A DNA stretch of 64,000 bases from an uncultured Bacteroides sp. (GTDB lineage: Bacteria > Bacteroidota > Bacteroidia > Bacteroidales > GCA-2748055). Location: the NCBI GenBank assembly GCA_964575865.1, contig CAZNSZ010000007.1, positions 18,931-82,930 of the forward strand, in the 5' to 3' direction. Shown piece after piece: positions 42,328 to 60,769 of this stretch (positions are counted from its first letter, which is position 1; every line of letters begins with the position of its first letter). Position numbers and translations under genes: made by a program. Below the pieces are notes generated by a model that saw only the letters and a program-made list of their open reading frames with translations, had not been told where the DNA came from and did no database searches.

Positions 42328-43518
42328 TCAACGGTCCCCGCTGAGGTTGCGGCGAATGGCATGTTCAAGGCCCCGGATCTCGGCCAGGCTCTTCATCCTT
42401 CCGTACAGGGAATAACCCGGGTAATGGTCAAGTCCGAAATCGCCCAGGATCCGCGCCCCGTGATCTGGACGGACCGGGATCCCAGTGTACCCGCGCACTT
42501 CTTTTTCCCGCCGGAGGTCCTCCCGCACCATGGTCTCCAGGATGGAATGGATGTCCACATCGCCTTCAAGCAGGTGGGTTTCGCTGAAGTTGCGCCCGGG
42601 ATCGCGTTTGACGTTCCTGAGATGCAGAAAATGGATGTGCCGGGCCAGCGAGGCGGCCATGGCCGGCATGTCATTGGTGGTTGAGGCCCCGAACGAACCG
42701 CTGCAGAAGGTGATCCCGTTGGCGGGGGAATCCACCGCACGGACAATGTACAGGGCATCCTCAAGGGTGCTCACGGCCCTGGGCAGTCCCAGCAGGGGCC
42801 AGGGGGGATCGTCGGGATGGATGGCCAGAAAGATGCCCGATTCCCCGGCAACGGGAACCACTTCCTGCAGGAAGCCGGTCAGGTGATCCTGAAAGGCAGC
42901 TTTGTCCATCCCTTTGTAGGCTTCGATCCGTTTCAGCACCTCCCGGGGGGTGAAAGCCTCTCCGGAACCGGGGAACCCCAGCAGGAAAGTTTTCAGCAGA
43001 TCTTCCTTTTCTTTTCGACCGGTCCGGTCATATAGGAGAGCGGCTTTGCGCACCACTTCTTCGGTATAATCCGATGCAGCTCCCGGTCGCTGCAGCAGGT
43101 ACATGTCGATCAGGGCAAAATGGACCAGGGTGAACGAGGAGAGTTCCGATCCGTCTGGCTGCCTGCTGTTCAGCCTGGTCCTGGACCAGTCCAGGGCCGG
43201 CATGAAATTGTAGCAGACCGTATGCACCCCCTCTTCTCCCAGGTGCTTCAGTGTCTGTTTGAAATTTTCAATGTGGAAGCGGAAATCGCCCGATCTTGTC
43301 TTTATGGATTCGTGCACCGGAACGCTTTCCACCACCCCCCAGCGCAATCCCGCTTTTTCGATGACTGCCTTCCGCTCCCTGATGGCTTCCCGCTCCCAGC
43401 ACGCACCCACAGGGATCTGGTGGAGGGCGGAGACCACGCTGACGGCCCCTGTCTGGACCACCTGGTCCAGGGTGACCGGATCACCCGGTCCGAACCATCG
43501 CCAGGAGGGGATCAGCAT
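42328..43518 (-). CDS. uxuA: Mannonate dehydratase
   Basis: WRWFGPGDPV, VCYNFMP, AIHPDDPP, HFLHLRN, RPDHG, YGRMKSLAEIRGL. Confidence 0.95.
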   Translation of the reverse strand: MLIPSWRWFGPGDPVTLDQVVQTGAVSVVSALHQIPVGACWEREAIRERKAVIEKAGLRWGVVESVPVHESIKTRSGDFRFHIENFKQTLKHLGEEGVHTVCYNFMPALDWSRTRLNSRQPDGSELSSFTLVHFALIDMYLLQRPGAASDYTEEVVRKAALLYDRTGRKEKEDLLKTFLLGFPGSGEAFTPREVLKRIEAYKGMDKAAFQDHLTGFLQEVVPVAGESGIFLAIHPDDPPWPLLGLPRAVSTLEDALYIVRAVDSPANGITFCSGSFGASTTNDMPAMAASLARHIHFLHLRNVKRDPGRNFSETHLLEGDVDIHSILETMVREDLRREKEVRGYTGIPVRPDHGARILGDFGLDHYPGYSLYGRMKSLAEIRGLEHAIRRNLSGDR

Positions 43519-43580
43519 GGGAGCGGGGATGGAAAGGAATGGAACATCGGTCTCACTTTCATTGATCTGTTCTTATTGGA

Positions 43581-44405
43581 TCACACCCCGCTGTGGAAGC
43601 TGAATCCGCCGTCCACCGGCAGGATCACCCCGGTCACGAAAGAGGCCGCATCGCCGGCAAGGAACAGCACGGCACCGATCAGCTCGTCGGCTTTCCCGAA
43701 CCTCCCCATGGGGGTTTTCCCGATCACCAGTCCGCCCCGTTCCGTAGGCGTGCCGTCCGGATTGGTCAGCAGTGCCCGGTTCTGATCCCCGATGAAGAAC
43801 CCCGGTGCAATGGCATTGACACGGATGCGGGGACTGTGTTTCATGGCCATCTCCATGGCCATCCACTGGGTGAAGTTGGAAACGGCCGCTTTGGCAGCGG
43901 AATACCCGACCACCCTGGTGATGGTCCGCATGGCAGCCATGGAGGAAATATTGATGATGGAACCGCTTTTTTGCCCGGCCATGATCCTGCCCACCTCCAG
44001 GGTGGGGAGCAGGGTACTCTTATAATTGAGGTCCGACACCCTGTCGAAATCAGCCAGGTTGAGATCGAAAATGGTCCGGTCGGGTGCAATGGTGGCCCCC
44101 GGGATATTCCCTCCGGCCGCATTGATCAGGATGTCGATCCTGGCATGTTCGTCCAGGATCTTTGCGCAGGTCCTGCGGATGCTTTCCATGTCCAGGGCAT
44201 CCATGTGCACCCCGTAAGCCGAGCAGCTTTTTCCGATGATGGTTTCCGCATTGGCCACCGCCTTTTCCAGGTTGATGTCTGCCAGGATGATCTTCACCCC
44301 CGCCTGTGCCAGCCCGCAGCCGATGGCGCCGGCCAGCACGCCCCCGCCGCCGGTGATCAGCGCGGTTTTTCCCTCCAGGTTGTATAATTTATCAATGTAT
44401 CCCAT
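43581..44405 (-). CDS. uxuB: SDR family D-mannonate oxidoreductase-like protein
   Basis: TGGGGVL, INAAGGN, YSAAKAA, NAIAPGFF, PVDGGFS; directly upstream of uxuA. Confidence 0.82.
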   Translation of the reverse strand: MGYIDKLYNLEGKTALITGGGGVLAGAIGCGLAQAGVKIILADINLEKAVANAETIIGKSCSAYGVHMDALDMESIRRTCAKILDEHARIDILINAAGGNIPGATIAPDRTIFDLNLADFDRVSDLNYKSTLLPTLEVGRIMAGQKSGSIINISSMAAMRTITRVVGYSAAKAAVSNFTQWMAMEMAMKHSPRIRVNAIAPGFFIGDQNRALLTNPDGTPTERGGLVIGKTPMGRFGKADELIGAVLFLAGDAASFVTGVILPVDGGFSFHSGV

Positions 44406-44483
44406 GATTTCTCTGAGCTTGTTGCATGGTCGGGATTTGACTGAATGATAAACAAAACAATGGCCTTCCTGTTCGGGCGGAGC

Positions 44484-44523
44484 AAAAAAAACTGCCTTCC
44501 GGCGGGCGGTTCCGGAAGGCAGT
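44484..44523 (-). terminator. Intrinsic terminator of the second susC/susD operon
   Basis: Perfect 12-bp stem ACTGCCTTCCGG/CCGGAAGGCAGT with 9-nt loop, followed by a T-tract on the minus strand. Confidence 0.88.
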
Positions 44524-44545
44524 CCTTCACTAACCTAAAACCATC

Positions 44546-46291
44546 CTAATAACCAGGATTTTGCCCATATTCGTTGGTGGTCCTTGTGATCTGGTTGACA
44601 GGGATGGGGCGCAGGGCATGGAAATCCTTGATGTTCTGCGCGTCCGGATTGTGCAGTTTCACCCGCTCTATGAGTTTCCCGGTCCGCTTGAGATCCAGCC
44701 AGCGCTGCTGTTCCCCGAAGGTCTCCCTGGACCATTCGTCCAGTATGAAATCCAGGTCCACCTCCCCGGCGGGCACTTCCATCTGTGACTCCATGCCCGG
44801 CCAGGCTGCCCGCCTGCGGATCGCATTGATATATTCCACCGCATTGCTCCCGTTTCCGTCCCTTCCCAGCATGGCCTCGGCTGCGACCAGGTAGGTCTCG
44901 CCCAGCCTGTAGACCGGGAAATCCCTTGACCCCCTGGTCTCGTTCAGCGAGGGCCTCAGGTTGTCCTCCCACTTCCAGGGAACCGGGAAGATGTTGATGT
45001 TCGGATTGTTGGCCGAGACGTCGGTCTTCCAGAGGCACCAGTCCTGGTCGATCTCATCCAGGTTCCAGGTGAAAAGCTGCACCCCGGGAAGGCGGGCCCT
45101 GATGGCCGCCGTATCGAACTCGGCAGCCGTTTTATCGGTGATCCATATGGCCGTGTCGCCCACAGCCGCCCCTTCCGGGATGTTCCGGTCGGTGTTGTAA
45201 AGCCATACGATCTGGAACGATTTCTCGAACCGGGAATCCACATCCAGCGGCCTGAAGCTTTCCAGCAGCCAGGGGGTGGGCCTGAACCGGATCCAGGGGC
45301 GGCCGTACCCGTGCCCCAGGGCGCGGTCCAGGCCGTTGCTGTAGACCTCGTACCACGCCCTGAAGTAGAGGTGGTTCCTGTTCCCCTCATCGTTCAGCAG
45401 CATGTCCTGGTCATACTGGATCGACCAGAGGATCTCGTTGTTCTGTTCCGATTCGGTGGTATGCACGAGTCCCCCGGCACCGTCATCCGAATTGTAGATC
45501 CGCTGGTAATCCGCCAGCAGCTCGTGCCCGGAATTCTGGATCACGTCCACGGCCAGGTCGGCGGCTTCGCTGAAATCAGCCGTGCCGTTCCCAAATGACT
45601 GGTAGGCGCGGGTCAGATACACAAGGGCCAGTCCGTGCTGCGCCGCCGGCCTGGTGATCCGTCCGAATTCCGACTGGCGGTCGGGAAGCACCGCGATGGC
45701 ATCCTCCAGGTCCTGGATGATCGCATTATAGATCTCGGCTTCCGAATCCCTGCGGGCCTCGGTCTCCACACCCACGGTCTCCTCCAGGGTCAGGTGCACC
45801 GGTCCCCAGAACTGGACCAGCAGGAAGTAGTAATGGGCGCGCAGGAATTTCACCTCTCCCACCAGCCGTGCTTTCTCATCCTCGGGGATATCGGCATCAG
45901 GTGCCCTGCCGATCACGGCATTGCAGGTGTTGATCCCCTCATAAAAGCGCTGCCACGGATCCCAGAAAGTGGCCGATTCTCCGTTGAGTCCTGCGATATA
46001 CTTGTTGATATAGTGGGCACCCCCGTGCCCGCCGTTGGTGTACTCATCGGTACCGAACACGGTGATCTCGCATCCGTCCTCGTCACCGTAAAAGTCCCGG
46101 AACCGTTCGTAAGCTGCGTTGACTGCATCCCTGAATCCGTCAGGTGTGTTGTAGTGGGTATCCACTGTGACCCCGGAAATGATCTCCTCCTCCAGGACGT
46201 CACACGAGACACCGGTGATCAGGGTTGCGGCAACTGCGATAAACAGATATTTGATTGTTTTCATAGCTCTCATGTTTTTATCCGTTACCAA
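44546..46291 (-). CDS. SusD/RagB family lipoprotein
   Basis: VSC lipobox; FLRAHYYFLLVQFWG, YRLGETYLVAAEA, EQQRWLDLKRTG. Confidence 0.93.
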   Translation of the reverse strand: MVTDKNMRAMKTIKYLFIAVAATLITGVSCDVLEEEIISGVTVDTHYNTPDGFRDAVNAAYERFRDFYGDEDGCEITVFGTDEYTNGGHGGAHYINKYIAGLNGESATFWDPWQRFYEGINTCNAVIGRAPDADIPEDEKARLVGEVKFLRAHYYFLLVQFWGPVHLTLEETVGVETEARRDSEAEIYNAIIQDLEDAIAVLPDRQSEFGRITRPAAQHGLALVYLTRAYQSFGNGTADFSEAADLAVDVIQNSGHELLADYQRIYNSDDGAGGLVHTTESEQNNEILWSIQYDQDMLLNDEGNRNHLYFRAWYEVYSNGLDRALGHGYGRPWIRFRPTPWLLESFRPLDVDSRFEKSFQIVWLYNTDRNIPEGAAVGDTAIWITDKTAAEFDTAAIRARLPGVQLFTWNLDEIDQDWCLWKTDVSANNPNINIFPVPWKWEDNLRPSLNETRGSRDFPVYRLGETYLVAAEAMLGRDGNGSNAVEYINAIRRRAAWPGMESQMEVPAGEVDLDFILDEWSRETFGEQQRWLDLKRTGKLIERVKLHNPDAQNIKDFHALRPIPVNQITRTTNEYGQNPGY

Positions 46292-49228
46292 TTAAAAATC
46301 AACCATTAACCCGAAGGAATACATGCGGGTCGCCGGAACATCCGCCGTGATCTCACCCCCGTACTTTTCGGGATCAAGTCCCTTTTCCAGGTGTGACCAG
46401 ATGAAGAAGGTGTCCAGGTTGAGGTAGACCCTCAGCTTCTTCATCCCGGCCTTGGAAACCATTCCGGTCGGGAAGTTGTAACCCAGCTGGATGTTCTTGA
46501 TCTTGAAGAAATCCCCCGCGTAATATCCCCTGGTGGAGCTGTAGAGCGGGTACTCCCTCGAACCGTCGGGTTTGGGATGCACATTGGTTGGATTGGTCTC
46601 GGTCCAGTAATCCACATTCAGGTTGTTGTAGCGGCCCTGAAGGGTGGTCCTGGATACCAGGTAGTTGTTGTAGACGGTATGGCCGAAGACGCCCAGCAGC
46701 ATAAAGGAGAAGTCGATCCCCTTGTATTCGAACCGCTGGCCGAGCCCCAGGGTGATGGAGGGCATGTCCGATCCCAGGATCACCTGGTCTTCCTGGTTGA
46801 TCAAACCGTCATCGTTCTGGTCCATGACGTGGATCTCGCCCGGGTACTGGGAGTAAATGGCCGCATCGTCCTCCTCGCCCAGCTGCCAGACGCCCACTTT
46901 CTCGTAATCGTACCAGACGGTGAGCGGCTCCCCGATGAACCATTCGTTCCCCACGTCATCCTCCTCGGTCCCGTACAGGTCGAGGATCTCCTCCTTGTTT
47001 CCGAACAGGTTCAGGTTGGTTTCCCAGCTGAAATCGCCGCTGGCGAAGTTCATGAAGGTCACCCCCAGTTCCCATCCCCGGTTCCTGGTCTCGCCGATGT
47101 TCTCGAACACCGAGCTGAATCCGGAGGTGATGGGAAGCTGCCTTTCCAGCAGCAGGTCGGTGGTGTGGGTCTGGTATACCTCGAAACTACCGAAGATCCG
47201 GCCTTCCAGCAATCCGAAATCGAGACCGATATTGGCGGTGGCAGATGATTCCCAGCGGAGTTCCGGGTTGGCCAGGCTTTCCGGCCTGAATCCGAGCCCG
47301 GAGAGGCCTCCGAAGGAGTAGTAGGACCTGGCCAGGGCACCCCTGGTCTGGTAGGGATCGATCCCCGTGTTCCCTGTCACCCCGTAGCTCACCCTCAGGC
47401 GAAGGTCCGAGAAGAGATCCTGTCCCTGCATGAAATCCTCGCTGCTGATGCGCCACATGGCTGCGGCCGAAGGGAAGAACCCCCATTTGTTGCCTTCCGC
47501 CAGCCGGGACGACCCGTCCCACCGGCCCGTCAGCGTGAGCATATATTTGCCGAGCAGCTCATAGTTCACCCGCCCCATGATCGACATGATGCCCCATTCA
47601 CTGAGGTAGCTGCCCATGTCGTTGACCGTTTCGGCCGTTCCCAGGTTATGGTACAACTGCGATTCATAGGGAATGTCCTCCACCTCTATGTGGGTGAGTT
47701 CGCTGTTGGATTCCTGGATACTGTACAACCCGGTGAAATTGAGGTTGTGGTCCCCGGTCTCCAGGGTGTAGGTCAGGATGTTCTCAAAGGTATATTCAAA
47801 GACCCTTTCATGCTCTTTGCGTACCAGGGCATTGCCTCCCTGCCGGGCGCCCGAATTGGATCCCTGGAACAGTCCCCTCCTGTACGTGGTCAGGCTGGGC
47901 CCGTAGTTCATCCGGTAGCTCAGGTTGTCCAGGATGTCGATCTCGGCGAAAATATTGCTGAACACCCTGAACGCTTCCCGCTCATCGGCATAGACCCCCT
48001 CCTCGTAATCGGCCAGCGGATTCCACAACAATGGATCAGCCCCGGGCCTGAAGATCAGGTTCCCGTCCGCATCGTAGGGTTCGGCCAGCGGGGAGATGTT
48101 CACCGCTCCACCGTATGCATTCCCGCCCACGTTCCGGAGTCCGCTCAGTACCTGCGTGGAGGTTCCCACCTTGATCCGCTTGGTGGCCTGGTGGTCCAGG
48201 TTGACCCGGAATGTTTTCCTGGTGTAGTCCTGTGTTTCAATGACCCCCCCTTCCTTGAAATAGTTGGCGGAGATGGCGAAGCCCGTGGTGGAGTTCCCGC
48301 CCCGGACCGCCAGCTGGTTGTTGGTCTGGAATCCGTTGCCGAGGACAAGGTCCACCCAGTCGGTGGAGACTCCCGCTGCATAGGCGTCCAGTTCATCCTG
48401 GGTAAATGCGCGTCCACCCACTTCCTTGAGCCGGTAATACTGCTCACCGTTCATGAGGTCGGGCACTGCCAGAACACTCGATATCCCGTAATGTCCCGAA
48501 TAGGAGATGGTGGTGGGCATGTTCCCGCCCCGGTTGGTGGTGATCAGGATCACCCCATTGGCGCCACGGGATCCGTAAATCGCCGTGGCCGAGGCGTCTT
48601 TCAGGACCTCCATGGACCGGATGTCCTTTGGATTCAGGCCAGTGATGGAACCGGTCCACGGTATCCCGTCTACGACGAACAGGGGGTCGTTGGTGGCGGT
48701 CAGGGATCTGCGCCCCCTGATCCGGATGGTCACATCGGTTCCGGGTGTGCTTCCGCCATCGGAGAGAGCCACTACCCCGGTGGCCCTGCCCTGCAGCGCC
48801 TGGCCTGCATTCATCACCGGCCTTTCCTGGATCTCATCGGAAGAAACCGAGGAGATGGCCCCCGTGATGCTTCCCCTTCGCTGCGTACCATATCCGACCA
48901 CCACCAGTTCGTCGAGCCCCACCGTAGAGGGAGCCAGTTGAACGTCGATGGTGGTCCGGTTGCCCACAGGGATCGCCTGGACTTCATAGCCCACGAAAGA
49001 AAACAGCAGAACGGCATCGGTTCCGGGAACCTGGATGCTGTATGCTCCGTCAGGATCTGTGATCGCTCCGGTGGTGGTTCCCTGGACCACGATGTTGACC
49101 CCCACAAGGGGTTCACCGGTAGTCTCATCGGAGACCGTTCCCGTGACCGTCCTTGCCTGTGCGAACAGGTTCAGACTGCATAAGGAACAGCATGCTCCGA
49201 AGAAAAAGAATAGCAGTGTTTTTTTCAT
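46292..49228 (-). CDS. SusC/RagA TonB-dependent transporter
   Basis: PLFVVDGIP, VLKDASATAIYGSRGANGVILITT, terminal LMVDF. Confidence 0.95.
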   Translation of the reverse strand: MKKTLLFFFFGACCSLCSLNLFAQARTVTGTVSDETTGEPLVGVNIVVQGTTTGAITDPDGAYSIQVPGTDAVLLFSFVGYEVQAIPVGNRTTIDVQLAPSTVGLDELVVVGYGTQRRGSITGAISSVSSDEIQERPVMNAGQALQGRATGVVALSDGGSTPGTDVTIRIRGRRSLTATNDPLFVVDGIPWTGSITGLNPKDIRSMEVLKDASATAIYGSRGANGVILITTNRGGNMPTTISYSGHYGISSVLAVPDLMNGEQYYRLKEVGGRAFTQDELDAYAAGVSTDWVDLVLGNGFQTNNQLAVRGGNSTTGFAISANYFKEGGVIETQDYTRKTFRVNLDHQATKRIKVGTSTQVLSGLRNVGGNAYGGAVNISPLAEPYDADGNLIFRPGADPLLWNPLADYEEGVYADEREAFRVFSNIFAEIDILDNLSYRMNYGPSLTTYRRGLFQGSNSGARQGGNALVRKEHERVFEYTFENILTYTLETGDHNLNFTGLYSIQESNSELTHIEVEDIPYESQLYHNLGTAETVNDMGSYLSEWGIMSIMGRVNYELLGKYMLTLTGRWDGSSRLAEGNKWGFFPSAAAMWRISSEDFMQGQDLFSDLRLRVSYGVTGNTGIDPYQTRGALARSYYSFGGLSGLGFRPESLANPELRWESSATANIGLDFGLLEGRIFGSFEVYQTHTTDLLLERQLPITSGFSSVFENIGETRNRGWELGVTFMNFASGDFSWETNLNLFGNKEEILDLYGTEEDDVGNEWFIGEPLTVWYDYEKVGVWQLGEEDDAAIYSQYPGEIHVMDQNDDGLINQEDQVILGSDMPSITLGLGQRFEYKGIDFSFMLLGVFGHTVYNNYLVSRTTLQGRYNNLNVDYWTETNPTNVHPKPDGSREYPLYSSTRGYYAGDFFKIKNIQLGYNFPTGMVSKAGMKKLRVYLNLDTFFIWSHLEKGLDPEKYGGEITADVPATRMYSFGLMVDF

Positions 49229-49378
49229 AGTAGTTAGTTAGGAGTTAGTAGTTAGAGGTTAGATATCAACTATAAATAAAAAAGGGCTTGTTTGACGGTG
49301 AGGGCTGCCGGGATCGGCAGCGGGGATTGCGCACAGGAAAAACTGGTTCGGGCATAACGGGTTGAATTGTCCGGACAT

Positions 49379-49392
49379 TGCAATCGGTTGCA
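49379..49392. promoter_or_regulatory. LacI-type operator TGCAATCGGTTGCA upstream of susC
   Basis: Near-palindrome with central CG, identical to 53165-53178; abuts a TAACTTTA -7-like box (49393-49400, minus strand). Confidence 0.8.
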
Positions 49393-49512: not shown

Positions 49513-50889
49513 TCAGAGGTTCAGGTAATCCGTCCCGTAAGGATAGCGCTGGGGCCTGCTCAGCATGGCGTTGGCCGCTTCATTTCCGATGAAGCGCTCC
49601 TTTTCCGGATCCCACTGCAATGCCCCGGGAATTTTCATGGCGATATGGCTCAGCAGGCAGACGGAGCATGCCCGGTGACCGATCTCGATGGGGGAGATGG
49701 GTTCTTTCCTGCTCTGGATGCAGTCCAGCCAGTTTCCGTGCTGATCTTCGCTCACATACAGGTGGAGTTCTTCTTCGCCGATGGGTGACTTAAGGATCCC
49801 CGGATCGCTGGCATTCAGCGCCTGGTTGCTCCTTTCCTGGGCCACAGGGTCGCTGGCGGTGGCCACATAGTTGCCCCGGGAGACGAATATCCAGCCGTCG
49901 GTCCCTTCATACCGGATCCCGTTCGGGAATCCACCGCTGGTATACATGGTGATCCCGTTCTCATATTCGGCTTTAACCATGAAGTCGCCATGGACATCCC
50001 AGAGCCCGGATTTGGGGAACTCGGCCACCGCTTCCAGCGAGATGGGTCCCGTATGTTCGGTGTCCATGCCCCAGGCTGCCGAGTCGAAATGGTGCTGTCC
50101 CCAGCCGGTGATCATGCCCGCCCCGAACTGTTCCCGCCTCAACCAGCCGGGTCTTCCGTAACCCTCCCGGGGATGCACCCCGATCTCCGTATAATACACC
50201 CAGGGGGTCTCTCCCAGCCACATGTCATAATTGAGGTTGACGGGGACGGGCATCTCTTCGGCTTCCGGTCCGGAAGGATCCCCCGGGAGGCCGATCTTGA
50301 CCGTATGCAGCTTCCCGATGCGCCCGTTCCTCACCAGTTCTGCTGCAAGGCGGAATTGTTCCGAGGAGCGCTGCTGGGTCCCCATCTGCAGGATGATGCC
50401 CTTTTTACGCACCACGTCGCTGACCAGCCTGCCTTCTGCAATGGTCAGGGAGGTGGGCTTCTGCAGGTAGATGTCCTTCCCTGCAAGTGCAGCTTCGATG
50501 GCGGGCTGGGCATGCCAGTGGTCGGGAGTGGAAATGATCACGGCATCGATCTCCGGATTGAGCAGCATTTCACGGTAATCCTCATACATGGCCACATCGG
50601 GCACGCCCTGTCCGTTCAGCTTCTCCCGGTAATACCCTTCCACCAGTTCCCTGCCTTCCTGCATGCGTTTGCTGTCCACGTCGCTGACTGCGATCACACG
50701 GGCGATGTCGTATTTCATGGTGTCGGGGAGATCGTGTCCGCGGGCAATGCGGCCGCAACCGATCTGTCCGATCTGTATCCTGTTGCTCGGGGCGCTTTTG
50801 CCAAATACCGAGGATGGTACAATGGTGGGCACGGTAAATGCACCTGCGGCGGCCGCCGAGGCGTTTTTAATGAAGGTCCTTCGTTTCAT
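49513..50889 (-). CDS. Tat-exported Gfo/Idh/MocA oxidoreductase
   Basis: MKRRTFI; GQIGCG, TPDHWHA, YLQKP, GWGQHHFD. Confidence 0.9.
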   Translation of the reverse strand: MKRRTFIKNASAAAAGAFTVPTIVPSSVFGKSAPSNRIQIGQIGCGRIARGHDLPDTMKYDIARVIAVSDVDSKRMQEGRELVEGYYREKLNGQGVPDVAMYEDYREMLLNPEIDAVIISTPDHWHAQPAIEAALAGKDIYLQKPTSLTIAEGRLVSDVVRKKGIILQMGTQQRSSEQFRLAAELVRNGRIGKLHTVKIGLPGDPSGPEAEEMPVPVNLNYDMWLGETPWVYYTEIGVHPREGYGRPGWLRREQFGAGMITGWGQHHFDSAAWGMDTEHTGPISLEAVAEFPKSGLWDVHGDFMVKAEYENGITMYTSGGFPNGIRYEGTDGWIFVSRGNYVATASDPVAQERSNQALNASDPGILKSPIGEEELHLYVSEDQHGNWLDCIQSRKEPISPIEIGHRACSVCLLSHIAMKIPGALQWDPEKERFIGNEAANAMLSRPQRYPYGTDYLNL

Positions 50890-53164: not shown

Positions 53165-53178
53165 TGCAATCGGTTGCA
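53165..53178. promoter_or_regulatory. LacI-type operator TGCAATCGGTTGCA between the divergent DUF6807 operon and lacI
   Basis: Identical to 49379-49392; 12 nt upstream of a TATATTTG box. Confidence 0.8.
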
Positions 53179-53190
53179 AATAATAATCTT

Positions 53191-53198: not shown

Positions 53199-53242
53199 AA
53201 ATTCACAATCCGTTTGACAGCCCTTGCACCACCCTTCCGACC

Positions 53243-54295
53243 ATGACCCATAAAAAGGAAGTGACCATTTACGATATCGCCGAGGCACTGAAAATTTCGG
53301 CTTCAACCGTCAGCCGGGGCCTCAGGGACCATCCTGCCCTCCGCAGGGAGACGGTCCGGCGGATCAAGGAAGTGGCCAGGGAAATGGGTTATCAGCAGAA
53401 CGCTTTCGCCAGCAACCTGCGGAGCAACCGTTCCAATACCATCGGTGTGATTCTTCCGAGGCTGGACAGCAATTTCCAGTCCTCGGTGGTGGCCGGCATC
53501 GAAAAAAAGGTGAACCAGCATGGGTACAACCTGATCATCAGCCAGTCGCGGGAAAGCAAGGCGAAGGAAAACGCCAACATCGACACCATGTTCAACAGCA
53601 GGGTGGACGGACTGCTGGTTTCGCTGGCGTGCGATACCTGCGACCTTTCCCACTTCAACAACATGCTGCGCAAGGGGATCCCGGTGGTGCTCTTCGACAG
53701 GGTCAAGGAGCATCCCGATTACAGTTGTTCACGGGTGGTGATCGACAATGTGAAAGCCGGCCGCGATGCAGTGGCCCATCTGCTGGATGAAGGATGCTGC
53801 CGGATCATGTACGTGGGGGATAACCTGACAGGCAGTGTATATGCCGACCGGCACCGGGGGTACATGGAAGCCCTTGCGGAAAGGAAGATCCCCTATGATC
53901 CGGACCTCTCTTACATCACACCCCTGGATGAAAGGTCCGGTGAAAGGGTGGTGGAGCGGATCCGGGAACTGGATGCCCTCCCGGATGGCATCTTCGCCGC
54001 CAATGACACCTCGGCCGTTTCGATCATCTGCGAGCTGAAGCAGAACGGGTACAGGGTCCCGGAGGATGTGGCCGTGGTGGGATTCAACGATGTGCATATT
54101 GCCCGGGTGATCGATCCCCCCCTGACCACCATCCGGTATCCCGGGGAGGAGATGGGAGAAGTGGCCGCCACCACACTGATCGAGATCCTCACCGGCGGCG
54201 AGGCGGTGACCAGGAAGACCGTGGTGCTGGACCACCAGCTGGTGGTCCGTAAGTCATCCATGAAGCACCTGAATGAACCGCATGCGGTCTCCTGA
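53243..54295 (+). CDS. LacI family transcriptional regulator
   Basis: VTIYDIAEALKISASTVSRGL HTH; sugar-binding domain with VVGFND. Start moved to ATG 53243. Confidence 0.95.
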   Translation: MTHKKEVTIYDIAEALKISASTVSRGLRDHPALRRETVRRIKEVAREMGYQQNAFASNLRSNRSNTIGVILPRLDSNFQSSVVAGIEKKVNQHGYNLIISQSRESKAKENANIDTMFNSRVDGLLVSLACDTCDLSHFNNMLRKGIPVVLFDRVKEHPDYSCSRVVIDNVKAGRDAVAHLLDEGCCRIMYVGDNLTGSVYADRHRGYMEALAERKIPYDPDLSYITPLDERSGERVVERIRELDALPDGIFAANDTSAVSIICELKQNGYRVPEDVAVVGFNDVHIARVIDPPLTTIRYPGEEMGEVAATTLIEILTGGEAVTRKTVVLDHQLVVRKSSMKHLNEPHAVS

Positions 54296-54335
54296 TTGCG
54301 GGCTATTTTCATTATCTTGGGGGCTCATTTCATCT

Positions 54336-55343
54336 ATGATGGATCATCATCTCCCTTTCCATCCGATCCTGATGCATTTTGCAGCCAGATATGCCGGATA
54401 CAGCTACGGTGCATTTGCCGCTGACCACCGGGTACTGGTGGAGAGCAACCTGCGATGCCAGGAAGCCTTCGGCCTTGATGCGGTGGGCCTCATCTCCGAT
54501 CCATACCGGGAGACCGCCGCCTTCGGCGCCCGGATCACCTTCCCGGAGGAGGCAGTCCCCCGTTGCCACGGTCCCGTCGTCAGAAACATGGAGGATCTGA
54601 AGGGATTGAAAAATCCCGACGTGTACAGGGCAGAACGCACCCGGGACCGGATCCTGGCGGGAAAAGCGCTGCGAAAAGCGGCGGATCCCTCCATCCCCGT
54701 GATCGGCTGGATCGAGGGCCCGCTGGCCGAATCGTGCAACCTGGCCGGCGTCAACGAGGTGCTGCTCCGGCTCTACATGGATCCCGGTTTTGTCCGTATG
54801 CTGATCGACAGGGTGATGGTCACTGCAAAGGAGTTCGCCAGGGCACAGGTGGAAGCCGGGTGCGGGATCATCGGGGTAGGGGATGCCATCTGCTCACAGA
54901 TCTCCGCAGAGAATTACCGTGAGTTTGTCCGCGAGAAGCACCGGGAACTCTTCGGATATATCCACTCCCTGGGGGCCAGGGTGAAACTGCATATCTGCGG
55001 GAACATCACCCACCTGCTGGAGGAACTGCCTTACTCAGGGCCGGATATCGTAGACCTGGACTGGATGGTGGATATGGATAAAGCCAGGGAGTTACTGGGT
55101 CCGGGGATCACCAGGTGCGGCAACCTGGATCCTGTGGGAGTCATCCAGGAGAAAAAGCAGGAGGAGGTCTATGCGGCGACCAGGGGGCTGTGCGAGCGCG
55201 AGGAGGGACGGGATTTCATTCTGTCGGGAGGGTGCGAGATCACCGTGAACACGCCCCCCGGCCACCTGCGGGCCATGCGTGATGCCTCCCTTTCAGGCGG
55301 CGCCGAATCCGGCCGAAAACAAGCCAATCACTCATTTAAATGA
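54336..55343 (+). CDS. Uroporphyrinogen decarboxylase / MtaA-CmuA superfamily protein
   Basis: PVIGWIEGPLA, KLHICGN, CGNLDPV, ILSGGCEI. Start uncertain (54273 or 54336). Confidence 0.8.
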   Translation: MMDHHLPFHPILMHFAARYAGYSYGAFAADHRVLVESNLRCQEAFGLDAVGLISDPYRETAAFGARITFPEEAVPRCHGPVVRNMEDLKGLKNPDVYRAERTRDRILAGKALRKAADPSIPVIGWIEGPLAESCNLAGVNEVLLRLYMDPGFVRMLIDRVMVTAKEFARAQVEAGCGIIGVGDAICSQISAENYREFVREKHRELFGYIHSLGARVKLHICGNITHLLEELPYSGPDIVDLDWMVDMDKARELLGPGITRCGNLDPVGVIQEKKQEEVYAATRGLCEREEGRDFILSGGCEITVNTPPGHLRAMRDASLSGGAESGRKQANHSFK

Positions 55344-56113
55344 AACATCCTATGAGACCTTACATGCTTACAGAATCCTACTGGCCGGAGGTCAGGGAAC
55401 GTGACTACCGGCTGGCCGTGCTGCCCTGGGGAGCCACAGAGGCCCATAACCTGCACCTTCCTTACGGCACCGACAATTTCGAAACCGATGCCCTGGTGCA
55501 GGAGGCCGCACGGATGGCATGGGAACGCGGTGCGGGAGTGATCGTGCTTCCCACCATCCCCGTCGGGGTCAATACCGGCCAGCACGATATCAGGCTGACC
55601 CTCAATTTTCACCCCTCCACACAGCAGGCGATCCTGGAGGACCTGGCCGAAAGCCTGGACAACCACGGGATCGACAAGCTGCTGGTGGTGAACGGGCACG
55701 GAGGAAACGATTTCAGGCAGATGATCAGGGAGGTGGGGAGCCACTTTCCGGACCTGCTCATCGCCACCTGCAACTGGTTCCAGTCGGTGGACAAGACGGC
55801 AATCTTCGAGAACGGGGGGGACCATGCCGATGAGATGGAGACCAGCCTGATGATGTTTGCCCATCCCGAAAAGGTGAAACCGCCGGAGACGGCAGGAGAA
55901 GGCAGGTCCAAACGGTTCAGTGTGGAGGCGCTCAATGAATCATGGGCCTGGACCGAGCGGAAATGGAGCCGGACCACCGCGGACACCGGGATCGGTAACC
56001 CGAGAAAAGCCACCCGCGAGAAGGGGGAGCGCTATTTCAGCGAGGTTACCAAAAAGCTTGCTGACCTCATGACCGGCCTGGCGGCCACCGACGCGTCTGA
56101 CCTGTACCGGTAA
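55340..56113 (+). CDS. Creatininase family amidohydrolase
   Basis: LPWGATEAHNLHLPYGTD, NGHGGN, HADEMETS, GIGNP. Confidence 0.9.
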   Translation: MKHPMRPYMLTESYWPEVRERDYRLAVLPWGATEAHNLHLPYGTDNFETDALVQEAARMAWERGAGVIVLPTIPVGVNTGQHDIRLTLNFHPSTQQAILEDLAESLDNHGIDKLLVVNGHGGNDFRQMIREVGSHFPDLLIATCNWFQSVDKTAIFENGGDHADEMETSLMMFAHPEKVKPPETAGEGRSKRFSVEALNESWAWTERKWSRTTADTGIGNPRKATREKGERYFSEVTKKLADLMTGLAATDASDLYR

Positions 56114-56128
56114 TCCGGCAGATCAGTT

Positions 56129-56136
56129 TAGTTTTG
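56129..56136 (+). promoter_or_regulatory. -7 promoter box (TAGTTTTG) for the GMC operon
   Basis: Exact TAnnTTTG match in the AT-rich gap before ATG 56190. Confidence 0.6.
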
Positions 56137-56189
56137 TTCTAAAGGGATAATTCTTCAATTTGGTGACGGAACCCACCCGGTCGAACCAG

Positions 56190-56747
56190 ATGGCACTCAC
56201 CCGGAGAACATTCATCAGGACAGGGATGGCAGGCTTCGGCAGCCTGCTCCTGATGCCTTCCTGCTTCAGACAGGAACGGTCACCCTACCTTTTTTTCACG
56301 CCCGCCGAAGCGGCCTGCCTGATCCCGCTCTGCGAGCAGATCATTCCGGCCGATGACCATGGCGGAGGGGCCACCGAGGCAGGTGTCATCCATTACATCG
56401 ACCGGCAGCTGCTGGCGGTTTTTGATTATGACCAGGTGGTCTACCAGCGCGGCATCGATGCCCTGCAGGCCACCTGCCTGGAACGTTTCGGAAGGAGGTA
56501 TGAACAGCTGGATGCGGAAAGCCAGCTCCGGCTTGCCGAACAGATGGACACGGGCACCATCGGGGGGGAAGGCTGGGAGGGAACGGATCCCCGGCGTTTC
56601 TTCGGGCTGGTCAGGGACCACACCATGCAGGGCTTTTACGGGCCGCCCCGGCACGGGGGGAACCGGGACTATATGAGCTACCGGATGATGGACCTGGATT
56701 TTCCGCTGGTGGTGGGACGCAACCATTACCAACACCTCACACCCTGA
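56190..56747 (+). CDS. Gluconate-2-dehydrogenase subunit 3 family (Tat small subunit)
   Basis: LTRRTFI; IIPADD.GGGA.EAGV..YIDRQL; HTMQGFYG..RHGGNRD. Confidence 0.88.
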   Translation: MALTRRTFIRTGMAGFGSLLLMPSCFRQERSPYLFFTPAEAACLIPLCEQIIPADDHGGGATEAGVIHYIDRQLLAVFDYDQVVYQRGIDALQATCLERFGRRYEQLDAESQLRLAEQMDTGTIGGEGWEGTDPRRFFGLVRDHTMQGFYGPPRHGGNRDYMSYRMMDLDFPLVVGRNHYQHLTP

Positions 56748-56750
56748 ACC

Positions 56751-58406
56751 ATGGCGGCACAACATGTCAACGCAGTGATCGTAGGCGCCGGTGCAGGCGG
56801 GGGGGTGGTGGCCAAGGAGCTGGCCACCAACGGCCTGTCGGTTGTGCTCCTGGAACGGGGCGGATGGCCGGACTATGACAGGCACATCAACGATGAGCTG
56901 ATCTCGCAGCGGACCCAGGTGCTCGGTTCCGCATTCGGACCCGACCACAGGCTGCACCCCCGCGTCCGCATATACGGAGAAGGGAACCGGCAGGTGGTGA
57001 CCCCCATCCGGGGGGACTACGGCCACAATGCAGCGTGCGTGGGTTCCGGAACGGTCAGCTACGGGGCCATGGCGTGGCGCTTCATGCCGGAAGATTTCAG
57101 GATGAAATCCACCTATGGCCACGTGGAGGGATCCACCCTGGAGGACTGGCCCATTTCCTATGAGGAACTGGAACCCTATTATGAACAGGCCGAATGGGAA
57201 ATCGGGGTTGCCGGGGAGGCCCGGGACAATCCCTTTGCAGCACCCAGGGAAAGGGAGTATCCCATGCCCGCGTTCGAGAACAACAAGGAGGGAAAGGTGC
57301 TGGCAGCCGCCTGCAGAAGGCTCGGACTGCACCCTTTCCCCATTCCCATGCTCCGCAACTCGGTCCCCTACAATGGAAGGCCCGCCTGTATCAGGAACAG
57401 GACCTGCGTGGGATATGCCTGCCCGGTGGACGGAAAGAACGGAACCCACAACACGGTGATCCCCGTGGCCATGGCCACAGGCAACTGTGAGGTCAGGGTG
57501 CACTGCCAGGTGGCCGAGGTGATGAGCAACGACCGGGGCAGGGTGACCGGGGTAAGGTACTTCGATGAAAACAACCGGGAGCAGGTCCAGACCGCCGACC
57601 TGGTGGTGCTGGCCGCCTCCGCCACGGAGACTGCCAGGCTGCTGCTGAACTCCACCAGCAAATTGTTCCCCAACGGGCTGGGGAACAACCATGACTGGGT
57701 GGGGCGCAACCTCCAGGGCCATGCCTATACCGGCGCTCACGGGCTCTTCGATCATGAGGTCACTGACTATGCGGGACCGGGGGCCACCTTCGGGTTCTGC
57801 GACTACAACCACCACAACGAAGGGATTATCGGCGGCGGCCTTCTCTGCAATGAATTCAACGCGCTTCCCTACCTCTTTACCGGGATCAGGCCCCCTGGAG
57901 CGGCAAGGTGGGGCAGGGAGCACAAGGATTTCCAGATGCGGAACATCAAACGGATCGCGGCCCTCCACGGGCCCATCCAGGAGATGCCCAACTTTGAGGC
58001 CCGTGTCACGGTCGACCCCACGGTGAAGGACCACTGGGGAATCCCCGTGGCGGCGCTCTCCGGTGAGCGCCATGCCCTGGACCGGGTGCACTGCCAGTGG
58101 CTTTCGGAGCGTGCCGAGGAGGTGATCAGGGAAGCGGGAGCGGTAAAAACCTGGCTCAGTGTGGGGGGAAGGGGTCTCAGCGGGGGTCAGCATCAGTGCG
58201 GAACAGCCAGGATGGGTGATGATCCCCGTACCTCGGTGACCAACCGCTACGGACAGGTCCATGACATCGACAACCTCTTTGTGGCAGACGGCAGTGTTTT
58301 TGTGACCGGCGGAGGATTCAATCCGGTGCTGACCATCATGGCCGTTGCCTACCGCACCGGGGCCTACATCAACAGCACCTGGAAGGGAACCCGCTTAAAA
58401 TCCTGA
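56751..58406 (+). CDS. GMC family FAD oxidoreductase large subunit
   Basis: VIVGAGAGGG, VGSGTVSYGA, HQCGTARMG, NLFVADGS, FNPVLT; no signal peptide. Confidence 0.92.
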   Translation: MAAQHVNAVIVGAGAGGGVVAKELATNGLSVVLLERGGWPDYDRHINDELISQRTQVLGSAFGPDHRLHPRVRIYGEGNRQVVTPIRGDYGHNAACVGSGTVSYGAMAWRFMPEDFRMKSTYGHVEGSTLEDWPISYEELEPYYEQAEWEIGVAGEARDNPFAAPREREYPMPAFENNKEGKVLAAACRRLGLHPFPIPMLRNSVPYNGRPACIRNRTCVGYACPVDGKNGTHNTVIPVAMATGNCEVRVHCQVAEVMSNDRGRVTGVRYFDENNREQVQTADLVVLAASATETARLLLNSTSKLFPNGLGNNHDWVGRNLQGHAYTGAHGLFDHEVTDYAGPGATFGFCDYNHHNEGIIGGGLLCNEFNALPYLFTGIRPPGAARWGREHKDFQMRNIKRIAALHGPIQEMPNFEARVTVDPTVKDHWGIPVAALSGERHALDRVHCQWLSERAEEVIREAGAVKTWLSVGGRGLSGGQHQCGTARMGDDPRTSVTNRYGQVHDIDNLFVADGSVFVTGGGFNPVLTIMAVAYRTGAYINSTWKGTRLKS

Positions 58407-59467
58407 TGCGATCCATGAAGAAACGAAAGGGCATACTCCTCCTGATCACCATCCCGGTTCTGGCCGTTATCCTGCTGACGGGGTACGCAGGATGGAATGC
58501 GGCCAACCCGGAGCGGACCTGTGCCTCCTGCCATGAGATCGTTCCATCCATGGAGCTGTGGCAGCAATCGGCCCACCGGGAGGTCAGTTGCGCGGACTGC
58601 CACGGAACCGCCCTTTCCAACGGATTCCACAGCCTCAGGGAGAAAGCCGGGATGCTTTTCGGTCATTTCGGGAGAAGGCAGGATGCCGCTCCCGTCCGGC
58701 TGGACGAGGCCGGGGTGCTGGAGGTGATGGAAGCGTGCGTGGAGTGCCACATGGAAGAGTACCGGAGCTGGCTCTCAGGGGGGCATTCGGCCACCTATGC
58801 CGACATCTTTCTGAATGAAGCGCACAACCGCAAGGAGCAGCTGTACCCGGACTGCTTCCGGTGCCACGGGATGTATTACGGGGGCACCATCGGGGAGCTG
58901 GTACAGCCCATTTCCACAGCGGGCCCATGGACCATGACGGAGCGTGCAATGGAATCCCGGGCGGTGATCCCCTGCCTGGCCTGTCATCCCATCCATATGG
59001 AAAACCGGTTGCGGGGCAGGGCCGGATCCCTGGACGATCCCGGTGCCATCTTCTATGAACGGGAGGAAAGGGACCCCCTGATGGGGCTCTACCTGAGATC
59101 GGACCGGATGCACCTGAGGGCCGACATGCTGCCCAAGCCCGACATGTTCCGGCAGGGCGAGGCGGTCCATGTATCGGATGACCCGGCACAGCGGCTATGT
59201 GTTCAATGCCATGCCCCCAACTGGGCCCATGAGGCGGGTACAGAGGATGACCGGACGCCCGTTGGGGTCCATGAGGGTCTCAGCTGCCTGGCCTGTCACC
59301 AGGGTCATTCCAATGATCCCAGGGGCTCCTGTGCCCGCTGTCACCCTGCCCTCTCCAACTGTGGCCTGGATGTGGAGACCATGAACACCACGTATGCCAA
59401 ACGGGAGAGTCCCCACGATATTCATTTTGTAGCCTGCACAGATTGCCACGATCCGGTACCGGAATGA
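58406..59467 (+). CDS. Membrane-anchored multiheme cytochrome c (9 CxxCH)
   Basis: CASCH, CADCH, CVECH, CFRCH, CLACH, CVQCH, CLACH, CARCH, CTDCH; N-terminal TM helix. Confidence 0.9.
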   Translation: MRSMKKRKGILLLITIPVLAVILLTGYAGWNAANPERTCASCHEIVPSMELWQQSAHREVSCADCHGTALSNGFHSLREKAGMLFGHFGRRQDAAPVRLDEAGVLEVMEACVECHMEEYRSWLSGGHSATYADIFLNEAHNRKEQLYPDCFRCHGMYYGGTIGELVQPISTAGPWTMTERAMESRAVIPCLACHPIHMENRLRGRAGSLDDPGAIFYEREERDPLMGLYLRSDRMHLRADMLPKPDMFRQGEAVHVSDDPAQRLCVQCHAPNWAHEAGTEDDRTPVGVHEGLSCLACHQGHSNDPRGSCARCHPALSNCGLDVETMNTTYAKRESPHDIHFVACTDCHDPVPE

Positions 59468-59485
59468 TGACCCATCAAAGAGACA

Positions 59486-60769
59486 ATGAAACGACGACAG
59501 TTTCTCAACCAGTCGGCCGGCCTTGCCCTGGGAACCCTTGGAGGACCGGGGCTCTATCAGGAGACGAACGCTGCGGAACAAAGGGAAAGGACCAACCCGA
59601 TGCGTAACCGGGAACCCTTTCCGCTGGCCATCACCATGTGGGAATTCTCCTGGCTGGAGCGGAGATGGCCCGGAGCGGGGTATGAGGATTGGGACCGGGC
59701 GCTCACGGAGCTCACAGAGCGGGGATACGATGCGGTCCGCATCGATGCCTTCCCGCACCTGATCAGCCACGATCCCGAAAAAGAGTACCTGTTGCTGCCC
59801 CACTGGAGCGTGCAGGACTGGGGGAGCCCGGCCATTAACCGGGTCCGGGTCCAGCCCCACCTTAACCGGTTCCTCGAACGGTGCAGGGCACACGGTATCA
59901 AAGCGGGGCTCTCTTCCTGGTTCCGGCAGGACGAAGAGGACCTGCGCATGAAGCTGGACACTCCCGAAAAGCTGGGAGCGGCATGGCTGGCCGTCCTGGA
60001 TTCCATCCGGGAGGGCGGGGTGCTGGATGCGGTCTGCTATGTGGATCTTTGCAATGAATGGACGGGGCCGGCCTGGTGTCCTTTCTTTGTCAACGATCCG
60101 CCGGAAGCGGTATGGACGGGATGGGACACTGCGAAATCAAAGCAGTGGATGGAACGCGCCATTGCCGTCATCAAAGAGAAATACCCGGAGATTCCCGCCA
60201 CCTTCTCCTTCACGGGGGAGGTCACCCCGGACACCCCGGGCAAGGGGCCGTTCCCCATGCTGGATTTCCTGGAGCCGCACATCTGGATGTCCGCTTCCAA
60301 CGGGGATGAGTACTACCGGGAGGTGGGCTATACCTACGACAGGTTCGAACTGGAGAGTTACAGGAACCTGGCCCTCAAGGGAAAAGGGGTGTATGAGAAC
60401 CGCAAAGCATACTGGCAGGAGGGATTGAAGCGGCAGATCCGCCTGGCGGCAGAATGGTCGGAAAAGCTGAACACCGGACTGGTCACCACCGAATGCTGGG
60501 GGGTGGTTGATTTCAAGGACGGACCGCTGCTGGACTGGGGGTATGTGAAGGAGCTGTGTGCACTGGGCACGGAGGAGGCTGCCGGAACGGGAAGATGGAT
60601 CGCTCTGGCCACCAGTAATTTCTGTGGTCCCCAGTTCGTCGGGATGTGGCGGGATGTGGAATGGCACAGGAGATTAACGGATACCATCCACCGGGCCACG
60701 CTGGCCCCTGACCTGATGGCCTCACCGCTGGTGAGGCGGCTGGCCGGTACAGGGGCCTATTCGCGATAA
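59486..60769 (+). CDS. Tat-exported cellulase-like (clan GH-A) protein
   Basis: MKRRQFL; DLCNEW and LVTTECWG as putative acid/base and nucleophile. Confidence 0.7.
   Translation: MKRRQFLNQSAGLALGTLGGPGLYQETNAAEQRERTNPMRNREPFPLAITMWEFSWLERRWPGAGYEDWDRALTELTERGYDAVRIDAFPHLISHDPEKEYLLLPHWSVQDWGSPAINRVRVQPHLNRFLERCRAHGIKAGLSSWFRQDEEDLRMKLDTPEKLGAAWLAVLDSIREGGVLDAVCYVDLCNEWTGPAWCPFFVNDPPEAVWTGWDTAKSKQWMERAIAVIKEKYPEIPATFSFTGEVTPDTPGKGPFPMLDFLEPHIWMSASNGDEYYREVGYTYDRFELESYRNLALKGKGVYENRKAYWQEGLKRQIRLAAEWSEKLNTGLVTTECWGVVDFKDGPLLDWGYVKELCALGTEEAAGTGRWIALATSNFCGPQFVGMWRDVEWHRRLTDTIHRATLAPDLMASPLVRRLAGTGAYSR

Follow-up and report, generated by a model that had tools for sequence, protein, structure and literature searches.

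The stretch of DNA analysed here, hereafter the window, comprises 64,000 nucleotides of contig CAZNSZ010000007.1 from an uncultured Bacteroides sp. Between positions 42328 and 63233 it carries two divergent gene arms on either side of a gene for a LacI-family regulator. The left arm encodes a SusC/SusD pair, a Gfo/Idh/MocA oxidoreductase with a twin-arginine translocation (Tat) signal, which we call Gfo458, two DUF6807 proteins and the mannonate enzymes UxuA and UxuB. The right arm encodes a URO-D-family protein (UROD-A), a creatininase-like protein, a flavoprotein dehydrogenase with a nine-haem cytochrome, a PF12876 protein and a fusion protein of 773 amino acids (aa). We show here that the arms are two modules, each conserved separately in Bacteroidota, and that conserved operator sites join them in one lineage. 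The reading that we favour, albeit tentatively, is that they form one LacI regulon which handles an acidic glycan of uronate and amino sugar by oxidation instead of classical hydrolysis.

Genes and features of the locus

The genes of the window were confirmed by open reading frame (ORF) calls and by Pfam and NCBIfam scans. All genes named in a first-pass annotation of this DNA are present, including the cytochrome with its nine haems; overlooked were the gene of a Tat-exported small subunit at 56190-56747 and the 773-aa gene, which extends to 63233. From left to right, the features are:

42328-43518, minus strand: uxuA, D-mannonate dehydratase (Pfam UxuA, E 6e-108; TIGR00695, 434 bits at a cut-off of 199.6)
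43581-44405, minus strand: D-mannonate/fructuronate oxidoreductase of the short-chain dehydrogenase/reductase (SDR) type, UxuB function (PRK08277, 334 bits at a cut-off of 281)
44546-46291, minus strand: SusD-like lipoprotein (Pfam SusD_RagB and SusD-like_3)
46292-49228, minus strand: SusC-like TonB-dependent transporter (Pfam CarbopepD_reg_2 and Plug)
49379-49392, unstranded: operator O2, TGCAATCGGTTGCA, exact match about 150 nt upstream of susC in the spacer between the Gfo gene and susC
49513-50889, minus strand: Gfo458, Tat-exported Gfo/Idh/MocA oxidoreductase (Pfam GFO_IDH_MocA and C2 domain; RR motif MKRRTFIK)
50930-51838, minus strand: DUF6807 paralogue b, 302 aa, signal peptide (Pfam PF14100, E 3.5e-61)
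51835-53106, minus strand: DUF6807 paralogue a, 423 aa, signal peptide (Pfam PF14100, E 6e-66)
53165-53178, unstranded: operator O1, TGCAATCGGTTGCA, exact match in the 136-bp divergent spacer between DUF6807a and lacI
53243-54295, plus strand: LacI-family regulator (Pfam LacI helix-turn-helix and Peripla_BP_3)
54339-55343, plus strand: UROD-A, URO-D-family protein of the MtaA (zinc) type, cytoplasmic (Pfam URO-D, E 1.5e-55)
55340-56113, plus strand: creatininase-family amidohydrolase-like protein, cytoplasmic (Pfam Creatininase, E 6e-59)
56190-56747 (ORF from 56160), plus strand: Gluconate_2-dh3 small subunit with Tat signal and lipobox (Pfam PF13618, E 4.5e-25)
56751-58406, plus strand: GMC flavoprotein catalytic subunit (Pfam GMC_oxred_N and GMC_oxred_C)
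58406-59467, plus strand: membrane-anchored nine-haem c-type cytochrome (nine CXXCH motifs; Pfam Cytochrome_C7 and Cytochrom_NNT)
59486-60769, plus strand: PF12876 "Cellulase-like" TIM-barrel protein with Tat signal (Pfam, E 1.7e-139)
60912-63233, plus strand: 773-aa NagB-fold/PIG-L-like fusion (NCBIfam "GlcN6P deaminase-like", 194 bits at a cut-off of 384)

For comparison we used other contigs or loci, labelled L001 to L096. SusC orthologues (80-85% identity) follow the Gfo gene in L013, L014 and L019, the same loci that hold SusD orthologues of 80-82% identity; the real start of SusD is probably the Met at 46264. In L014 uxuA keeps its position and the SDR-type enzyme has a 90% identical orthologue. 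An adjacent susC/susD pair (44546-49228), one criterion for a polysaccharide utilization locus (PUL), is present. As to the other, a co-localised classified glycoside hydrolase (GH), polysaccharide lyase (PL) or carbohydrate esterase (CE), Pfam finds only the unclassified PF12876 protein in 42-63 kb, in agreement with the earlier statement that 42-60 kb holds no such gene besides a GH-A-like one.

Gfo458 finds its best matches in the Protein Data Bank (PDB) in 8tdf and 8tdh (E 2e-19, N-terminal Rossmann domain only), followed by a weaker one to 8tdi, a glucuronide 3-dehydrogenase (E 6.5e-7). The two DUF6807 proteins are 21% identical and have an HH motif in common. DUF6807a has no relative in the PDB by sequence. 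Its AlphaFold2 model (pLDDT, the predicted local distance difference test, 87) was compared by Foldseek and models as a carbohydrate-type, galactose-mutarotase-like supersandwich, with GH38, PL26, GalM, GH36 and heparinases among the matches; structure prediction had been proposed by the first-pass annotation as a check. An invariant D169-H170-x-H172-H173 motif and nine invariant Arg residues in the DUF6807a family would fit a metal or acid-base site for an anionic sugar. Orthologues with 51-71% identity occur among others in Mariniphaga, Sunxiuqinia and Mangrovibacterium, and 4,934 proteins of 8,000 scored candidates are homologous at E <= 1e-10, all from Bacteroidota wherever an organism is named. 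Our literature search found no functional study of DUF6807/PF14100 ("PmoA family protein"), of PF12876 (3GYC, IPR029475) or of PF16490, and none joining URO-D with PULs. In this search PF14100 came up in connection with carbohydrates only once, as an ORF between two novel beta-galactosidases on a soil metagenome clone.

In the right arm, the small subunit (N-terminus MALTRRTFIR...LLLMPSC) is kept in L003, L005, L006, L009, L011 and L014. The GMC subunit resembles the FAD-dependent glucose dehydrogenase (FAD-GDH) 6a2u (E 3.5e-53) and the fructose dehydrogenase (FDH) 7w2j (E ~1e-53), and three cysteines align to the 3Fe-4S motif of 6a2u. The N-terminus of the cytochrome is a membrane anchor of NrfH/NapC type, with an NCBIfam NrfH score of 45 bits that stays below the cut-off. 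Together, the GMC subunit, the Tat small subunit and the NrfH-like cytochrome plausibly form a respiratory dehydrogenase, in line with the earlier proposal that electrons pass to respiration. A mycofactocin-like system was considered and rejected, as the MftE, MftG and MftF matches are at superfamily level only and far below the cut-offs. The PF12876 protein is a close relative of PDB 3gyc, a "putative glycoside hydrolase" (E 6e-135), and, judged from the sequence, its motifs NEW(190) and TEC(335) are spaced like the acid/base and nucleophile of clan GH-A.

The ORF of UROD-A opens at 54273, and its homologues begin at the Met at 54339. Aligned to MtaA (4ay7), UROD-A keeps the His/Cys/Cys zinc ligands in LHICGN and GGCE, and it reaches 124 bits against the MtaA/CmuA subfamily, below the cut-off of 235.4. 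Orthologues with about 70% identity occur in very many Bacteroidota contigs. The creatininase-like protein matches PDB 3lub, a "putative creatinine amidohydrolase" (E 1e-66). A true creatininase was rejected: TIGR04448 gives 65 bits at a cut-off of 235, and the protein lies below all NCBIfam equivalog cut-offs. No assigned activity for 3gyc or 3lub was found in the searchable literature.

The 773-aa gene starts 142 bp after the PF12876 gene and belongs to the conserved operon. Its product is among the most conserved of the region, with 73-91% identity across 120 clusters. In a Foldseek search with a model of pLDDT 70 it shows a NagB fold (E 2.5e-7), and its C-terminus resembles the PIG-L fold of LnmX and MshB with a probability of 0.8-0.98 (LnmX 0.98) at a weak E of 0.019. 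Invariant PHHDD(410) and DTH(627) motifs are present, while the PIG-L Pfam match (E 0.008) is below threshold. The link to amino sugars made in the first-pass annotation gains from these folds. A canonical NagB was rejected (79.5 bits at a cut-off of 236.9; Glu148 and Arg172 missing). Public annotations of the protein vary between glucosamine 6-phosphate deaminase, 6-phosphogluconolactonase and PIG-L deacetylase. The genomic context of the orthologue in L095 supports a role with hexosamines: it lies among genes for a glycosylasparaginase, ROK kinases, a fucosidase and a PNGase-like protein, a context of N-acetylglucosamine and N-glycans.

Two modules joined by one operator

Within the whole window there are exactly two copies of the 14-mer TGCAATCGGTTGCA, one in the divergent spacer before lacI and one upstream of susC; the first-pass annotation had already linked susC to the regulator by two identical operators. 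It is a near-palindrome with a central CG, as is typical for LacI-family sites. Stronger evidence than the count within the window is its conservation across genomes: the same motif stands at both corresponding positions in L013/L048, L014, L019 and L024, and lacI of L003 and L005 is preceded by a version that differs at one position. In L003, L005, L013 and L014 the same operon begins with a gene for a LacI orthologue (52-76% identity), those of L013/L014 being 68-76% and those of L003/L005 about 52% identical to the regulator of the window. LacI is predicted to bind both 14-bp sites, that in the divergent promoter region and that preceding susC. Four independent contigs keep the operator in both places, before susC and before lacI, and the arms are therefore probably co-regulated in this lineage. 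A scan for sigma-70 promoters and terminators, ill-suited to Bacteroidota, returned sites no commoner than in shuffled sequence.

To see how far the arms belong together, two samples were compiled. The left-module sample comprises 43 loci of at least 9 kb anchored on DUF6807a orthologues of 51-70% identity, from a metagenome scan with alignment and three look-ups; the right-module sample comprises 8 loci anchored on UROD-A, with neighbours within 10 kb. We treated L013 and L048 as one contig. Each module recurs by itself. An orthologue of Gfo458 (69-87% identity) adjoins DUF6807 in 40 of the 43 left-module loci, and DUF6807b lies beside DUF6807a in at least 26, an undercount. In the right-module sample, the creatininase-like and 773-aa genes accompany UROD-A in all eight loci, the creatininase-like gene adjoining it. 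The four-gene cassette of small subunit, GMC subunit, cytochrome and PF12876 protein is present in six of these loci and missing from two; it is an optional insert. Right-arm genes stand near the DUF6807 module in only three of the 43 loci (L013/L048, L014 and L024), and none of the eight right-module loci has DUF6807 or Gfo458 within 10 kb. L019 has a left arm of the window type with both operators, and its sequence ends before the right-arm side. The arms are therefore independent modules that were brought under one repressor in one lineage. The first-pass annotation had proposed a synteny search for its single undivided pathway; co-occurrence holds within each module and for the operator layout, and fails for the two arms as a unit in most genomes.

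The usual neighbours of the left module give further detail. An AraC regulator is found in 26 of the 43 loci, a SusC-like gene in 18 and UxuA/UxuB in 10. The loci with LacI operators lack the AraC regulator, and the placement of the left module under LacI instead of AraC looks like regulatory capture. Of the neighbour families found in three or more of the 43 loci, numbered 0-23, 15 were identified. They include a PF16490 Gfo-like lipoprotein (26 loci), ThuA-like proteins (14) and LacZ-like GH2 (8) and, more rarely, DUF2264 (5), LarA-like proteins (4) and sulfatases (3); none of these is encoded in the window. The PF16490 "Oxidoreduct_C" lipoprotein has a Gfo-like N-terminus, and its gene comes next after the Gfo458 orthologue in its 26 loci (for example L049, 10866-12284). 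In their 14 loci the ThuA-like genes stand among the DUF6807 and Gfo genes, inserted between the two DUF6807 genes.

In 22 of the 43 loci a URO-D paralogue, UROD-B, is encoded directly upstream of DUF6807a. It is 22% identical to UROD-A, and its motif is His-x-Asp, not the His-x-Cys of MtaA; the idea that both are one protein was therefore rejected, given this identity and the different putative metal ligands. L013 and L024 have a right arm without UROD-A and a left arm with UROD-B, which hints that the system needs some URO-D-family activity and does not imply that the two proteins are equivalent. URO-D-family paralogues in L012 (8967-10004), L013 (8943-9974) and L009 (18790-19776) are 19-23% identical to UROD-A and carry His-x-Asp. 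Those of L012 and L013 are of the type found directly upstream of DUF6807a.

The surroundings suggest a history of the locus. A block of genes for NamZ, Golvesin_C, GT2, DUF4922, SpoIID and an AmpG-like permease of the major facilitator superfamily (MFS) directly precedes the lacI operon in L003, L005, L007 and L009, and the window has this block too, at 16066-25951. A gap of 12 bp separates the AmpG-like MFS gene from the 773-aa gene behind it in L096, within the GT2-DUF4922-SpoIID-MFS block. The simplest history has insertions nested at the junction of the permease and 773-aa genes (25985-60769 in the window), with the lacI-URO-D-creatininase(-GMC) cassette arriving first and then, in the lineage of the window, 27 kb (25985-53106) that include the left arm.

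Further observations concern the flanks. The Golvesin_C/fn3 protein of the block at 16066-25951 has 1002 aa, and the gene order of the block is shared with L003, L009 and L096. A divergent FAD-oxidase/CCG fusion gene (13163-16021, minus strand) precedes it. Between 29421 and 42079 lie a second SusC/SusD pair (37099-42079) and genes for a UnbV_ASPIC/FG-GAP protein (1096 aa), a Fib_succ_major protein, a further FG-GAP protein and a NapH-like Fer4_5 membrane protein. In L001, L010 and L011 a SusC-SusD-ASPIC operon is divergent to the URO-D/creatininase operon. In L005 about 2 kb of inserted DNA (7973-10001) separate lacI from the URO-D gene and contain genes for a Peptidase_S58 and a homologue of Asp/Glu racemase; D-amino-acid-related genes therefore move in and out of the operon. 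At the other end of the window, positions 25-13159 hold genes for carbohydrate-active enzymes (CAZymes), namely a GH31 with PA14, a GH127, a GH16 with a sorting domain of the type IX secretion system, a COesterase and a CBM48 esterase. No LacI operator lies near them.

A possible oxidative route and its alternatives

In the route that we favour, SusC/SusD would import an acidic oligosaccharide, and periplasmic Gfo458 with bound NAD would oxidise a sugar hydroxyl to a ketone. DUF6807a and DUF6807b may then carry out elimination and hydration, or an isomerisation, and free the sugar. The released uronate would enter the cytoplasm and be converted from fructuronate to mannonate and on to 2-keto-3-deoxygluconate (KDG) by UxuB and UxuA. 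On the other side, the small subunit, the GMC subunit and the cytochrome would oxidise a periplasmic sugar or glycoside and pass the electrons to menaquinone, with the GH-A-like PF12876 protein working alongside them. The cytoplasmic URO-D-like protein, the creatininase-like protein and the NagB/PIG-L fusion would process the amino-sugar part, and LacI would repress all promoters. Speculatively, the arms could be linked through the 773-aa protein if it deacetylates and deaminates an N-acetyl-hexosaminuronate to fructuronate, which would account for the lack of uxaC. That the route should end with the catabolism of mannonate, as anticipated by the first-pass annotation, fits the recurrence of UxuA/UxuB beside the left module in varied gene orders and without a local uxaC; both enzymes of the window score above their curated cut-offs.

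Several points weigh against this reading. Because the modules are separate in most genomes and share their regulation in one lineage, as the counts of three in 43 and none in eight illustrate, a common substrate can only be deduced indirectly. As the AmpG-like and 773-aa genes adjoin in L096, the region could be an insertion hot spot and not a functional unit. The oxidation-elimination chemistry is itself a prediction. Gfo458 reaches 125.6 bits against BT_2158_fam, with a cut-off of 750, and does so with its N-terminal half only, and in many Foldseek matches to DUF6807a the galactose-mutarotase-like fold has no catalytic function. A keto-glycoside lyase of a known family is absent from 42-63 kb: the AP_endonuc_2 family appears there solely as a secondary match inside UxuA, and tblastn with the DUF1080 (3keto-disac_hyd) protein of L013 finds no match in the window. 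In other loci, genes for DUF1080 proteins adjoin the 773-aa gene. The annotated ORFs of the window include no uxaC, kdgK or kdgA, and the locus has no inner-membrane sugar transporter. In the NagB-like domain of the 773-aa protein DGHIAFN is kept, the catalytic Glu148 is replaced by Thr and the phosphate-binding Arg172 is not conserved. Nor does this reading explain what the URO-D-like and creatininase-like proteins do.

The alternative that survives best, still an unlikely one, sees two functionally unrelated modules that neighbour each other at a hot spot of insertion. In this view the right arm would serve the catabolism of muropeptides, N-acetylmuramic acid (MurNAc)-peptides or glycopeptides taken up by the neighbouring AmpG-like permease, with the creatininase-like protein as an amidase, the URO-D-like protein removing a substituent and the 773-aa protein deacetylating and deaminating a hexosamine; the left arm would be a separate uronide locus under the same repressor. 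The spacing of the 773-aa gene and the permease gene in L096 and the NamZ/AmpG block before lacI in four loci speak for it, although this synteny could be plain inheritance within one clade. Right-arm genes of L001, L005, L010, L011 and L013 have neighbours that encode Peptidase_S58 (DmpA-type), Asp/Glu racemase, an Asn-synthase-like protein and a radical-SAM protein (Peptidase_S58 in four of the eight right-module loci, the others in several), and the absence of DUF6807 around all eight UROD-A anchors is expected under it. However, the operator kept at susC and at the lacI promoter in four contigs argues for co-regulation of the arms. A URO-D paralogue in the left arm of L013, L019 and L024, together with the missing UROD-A in the right arms of L013 and L024, suggests a shared requirement, and muropeptide recycling offers no obvious task for the periplasmic GMC/cytochrome/PF12876 cassette.

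A second alternative, which we consider improbable, is that the left arm acts in the periplasm on free monosaccharides, uronates or cyclitols, which it interconverts by oxidation and reduction, epimerisation or ring opening, and that classical glycosidases encoded elsewhere depolymerise the glycan. The Gfo/Idh/MocA family includes inositol and sugar dehydrogenases, and the mutarotase fold is typical of aldose 1-epimerases. In its favour, GH2, sulfatase and DUF2264 genes occur in related loci, and the window has GH31, GH127 and GH16 at 0-13 kb and PF12876 at 59486-60769. Weak NCBIfam matches to IolG, IolN and IolE point in the same direction; all are far below the cut-offs, and an inositol pathway was rejected for this reason. 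Against this alternative stands the susC/susD pair, placed directly after the Gfo gene and with an operator. ThuA-like genes, known from keto-disaccharide routes, recur in the module, and two DUF6807 paralogues that apparently always come as a pair suggest two chemical steps over a simple mutarotation.

Very improbable is the third alternative, in which UROD-A is a corrinoid-dependent O-demethylase acting on an O-methylated sugar such as 4-O-methyl-glucuronate: the MtaA zinc ligands are kept in UROD-A and UxuB/UxuA would take a demethylated uronate after isomerisation, but no corrinoid protein or activating methyltransferase is found among the recurrent left-module families examined or the called genes of the eight right-module loci, UROD-A stays at 124 bits where MtaA/CmuA require 235, the left-arm paralogue elsewhere has His-x-Asp and not His-x-Cys, and aliphatic methyl ethers are poor methyl donors. 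The O-methyl sugar of the first-pass annotation would depend on these zinc ligands, and no corrinoid partner recurs in about 50 loci; corrinoid-dependent demethylation was rejected accordingly for lack of partner genes among the recurrent neighbours.

Returning to the oxidative regulon, it is possible, if doubtful, that DUF6807 constitutes a new family of keto-sugar lyases or hydratases which with the Tat Gfo enzyme forms a third widespread non-Koshland system for cleaving uronides, and that the right arm adds a LacABC-like glycoside dehydrogenase of Bacteroidota wired to menaquinone through a nine-haem NrfH-like subunit. If so, a module whose homologues run to thousands would represent a new enzyme family of non-hydrolytic glycan breakdown, and such systems would be missed by CAZyme-based PUL annotation. 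The NrfH-like wiring would be an electron drain from periplasmic sugar oxidation that is compatible with anaerobic life, and a candidate path to the quinone pool in this phylum. The structural-genomics orphans 3gyc and 3lub as well as PF14100 would gain testable roles. Even with another chemistry, the conserved operator and the modular synteny provide a clean system for the discovery of ligand and substrate.

Comparison with known systems

Oxidation-elimination-hydration by Tat-exported Gfo enzymes has a precedent in BT2156-BT2160 and in AL1-AL4 of Alistipes (PMC8121099; 10.1101/2024.03.25.586180). The locus resembles this system in having a Tat-exported periplasmic Gfo enzyme in a Bacteroidota sugar cluster without a classical glycosidase and two accessory periplasmic proteins beside the dehydrogenase, and 8tdf/8tdh are the nearest solved homologues of Gfo458. 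It is nevertheless not a member: Gfo458 is no BT_2158 equivalog (126 bits at a cut-off of 750), two mutarotase-fold DUF6807 proteins replace the sugar-phosphate-isomerase TIM barrel and DUF1080 partners, and a second, cytoplasmic Gfo enzyme is missing, while SusC/D, UxuB/UxuA and a URO-D-family protein are linked instead. The locus may still work similarly.

Closer to the known 3-keto-glycoside system than the locus studied here is a three-gene set elsewhere in the window (25985-29239, minus strand). It encodes Gfo493, a Tat Gfo/Idh/MocA protein of 493 aa (27758-29239) with 437 bits against BT_2158_fam, below the cut-off of 750, next to an AP_endonuc_2 TIM-barrel protein of 364 aa (26676-27770) and a C_GCAxxG_C_C putative redox protein with a Tat signal. 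In L001, L003, L010, L011 and L013 the 773-aa gene adjoins a gene for a weaker Gfo493 homologue (34-37% identity).

The ThuAB route for 3-keto-disaccharides is described from rhizobia and Agrobacterium (cited in PMC8121099). ThuA-like genes within the DUF6807/Gfo module of 14 related loci recall it; unlike that route, the window has no ThuA-like gene, and SusC/D take the place of ABC systems. With the hexuronate pathway the locus shares UxuA and a Bacteroides-style SDR mannonate oxidoreductase, both above curated cut-offs, in contrast to the absence of uxaC, kdgK and kdgA from the window, which leaves the source of fructuronate unexplained. The PF12876 and creatininase-like proteins have their counterparts in the structures 3gyc and 3lub.

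The right-arm dehydrogenase shares with FAD-GDH (6a2u), FDH (7w2j) and LacABC, the glucoside 3-dehydrogenase of Caulobacter, all of them membrane flavoprotein dehydrogenases of three subunits, the GMC subunit with a 3Fe-4S motif, the Gluconate_2-dh3 protein as Tat "hitch-hiker" and an adjacent gene for a c-type cytochrome. In those enzymes the cytochrome subunit is a three-haem class I protein. The cytochrome of the window is, in contrast, membrane-anchored, nine-haem and NrfH/NapC-like, which suggests coupling to menaquinone. The cassette also differs in its place between cytoplasmic URO-D/creatininase genes and the NagB/PIG-L gene and in its association with PF12876. It has been argued that the short respiratory chain of Bacteroides probably precludes cytochrome-c-dependent glycoside dehydrogenases (PMC8121099). 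An NrfH-like nine-haem subunit is a plausible way round this objection.

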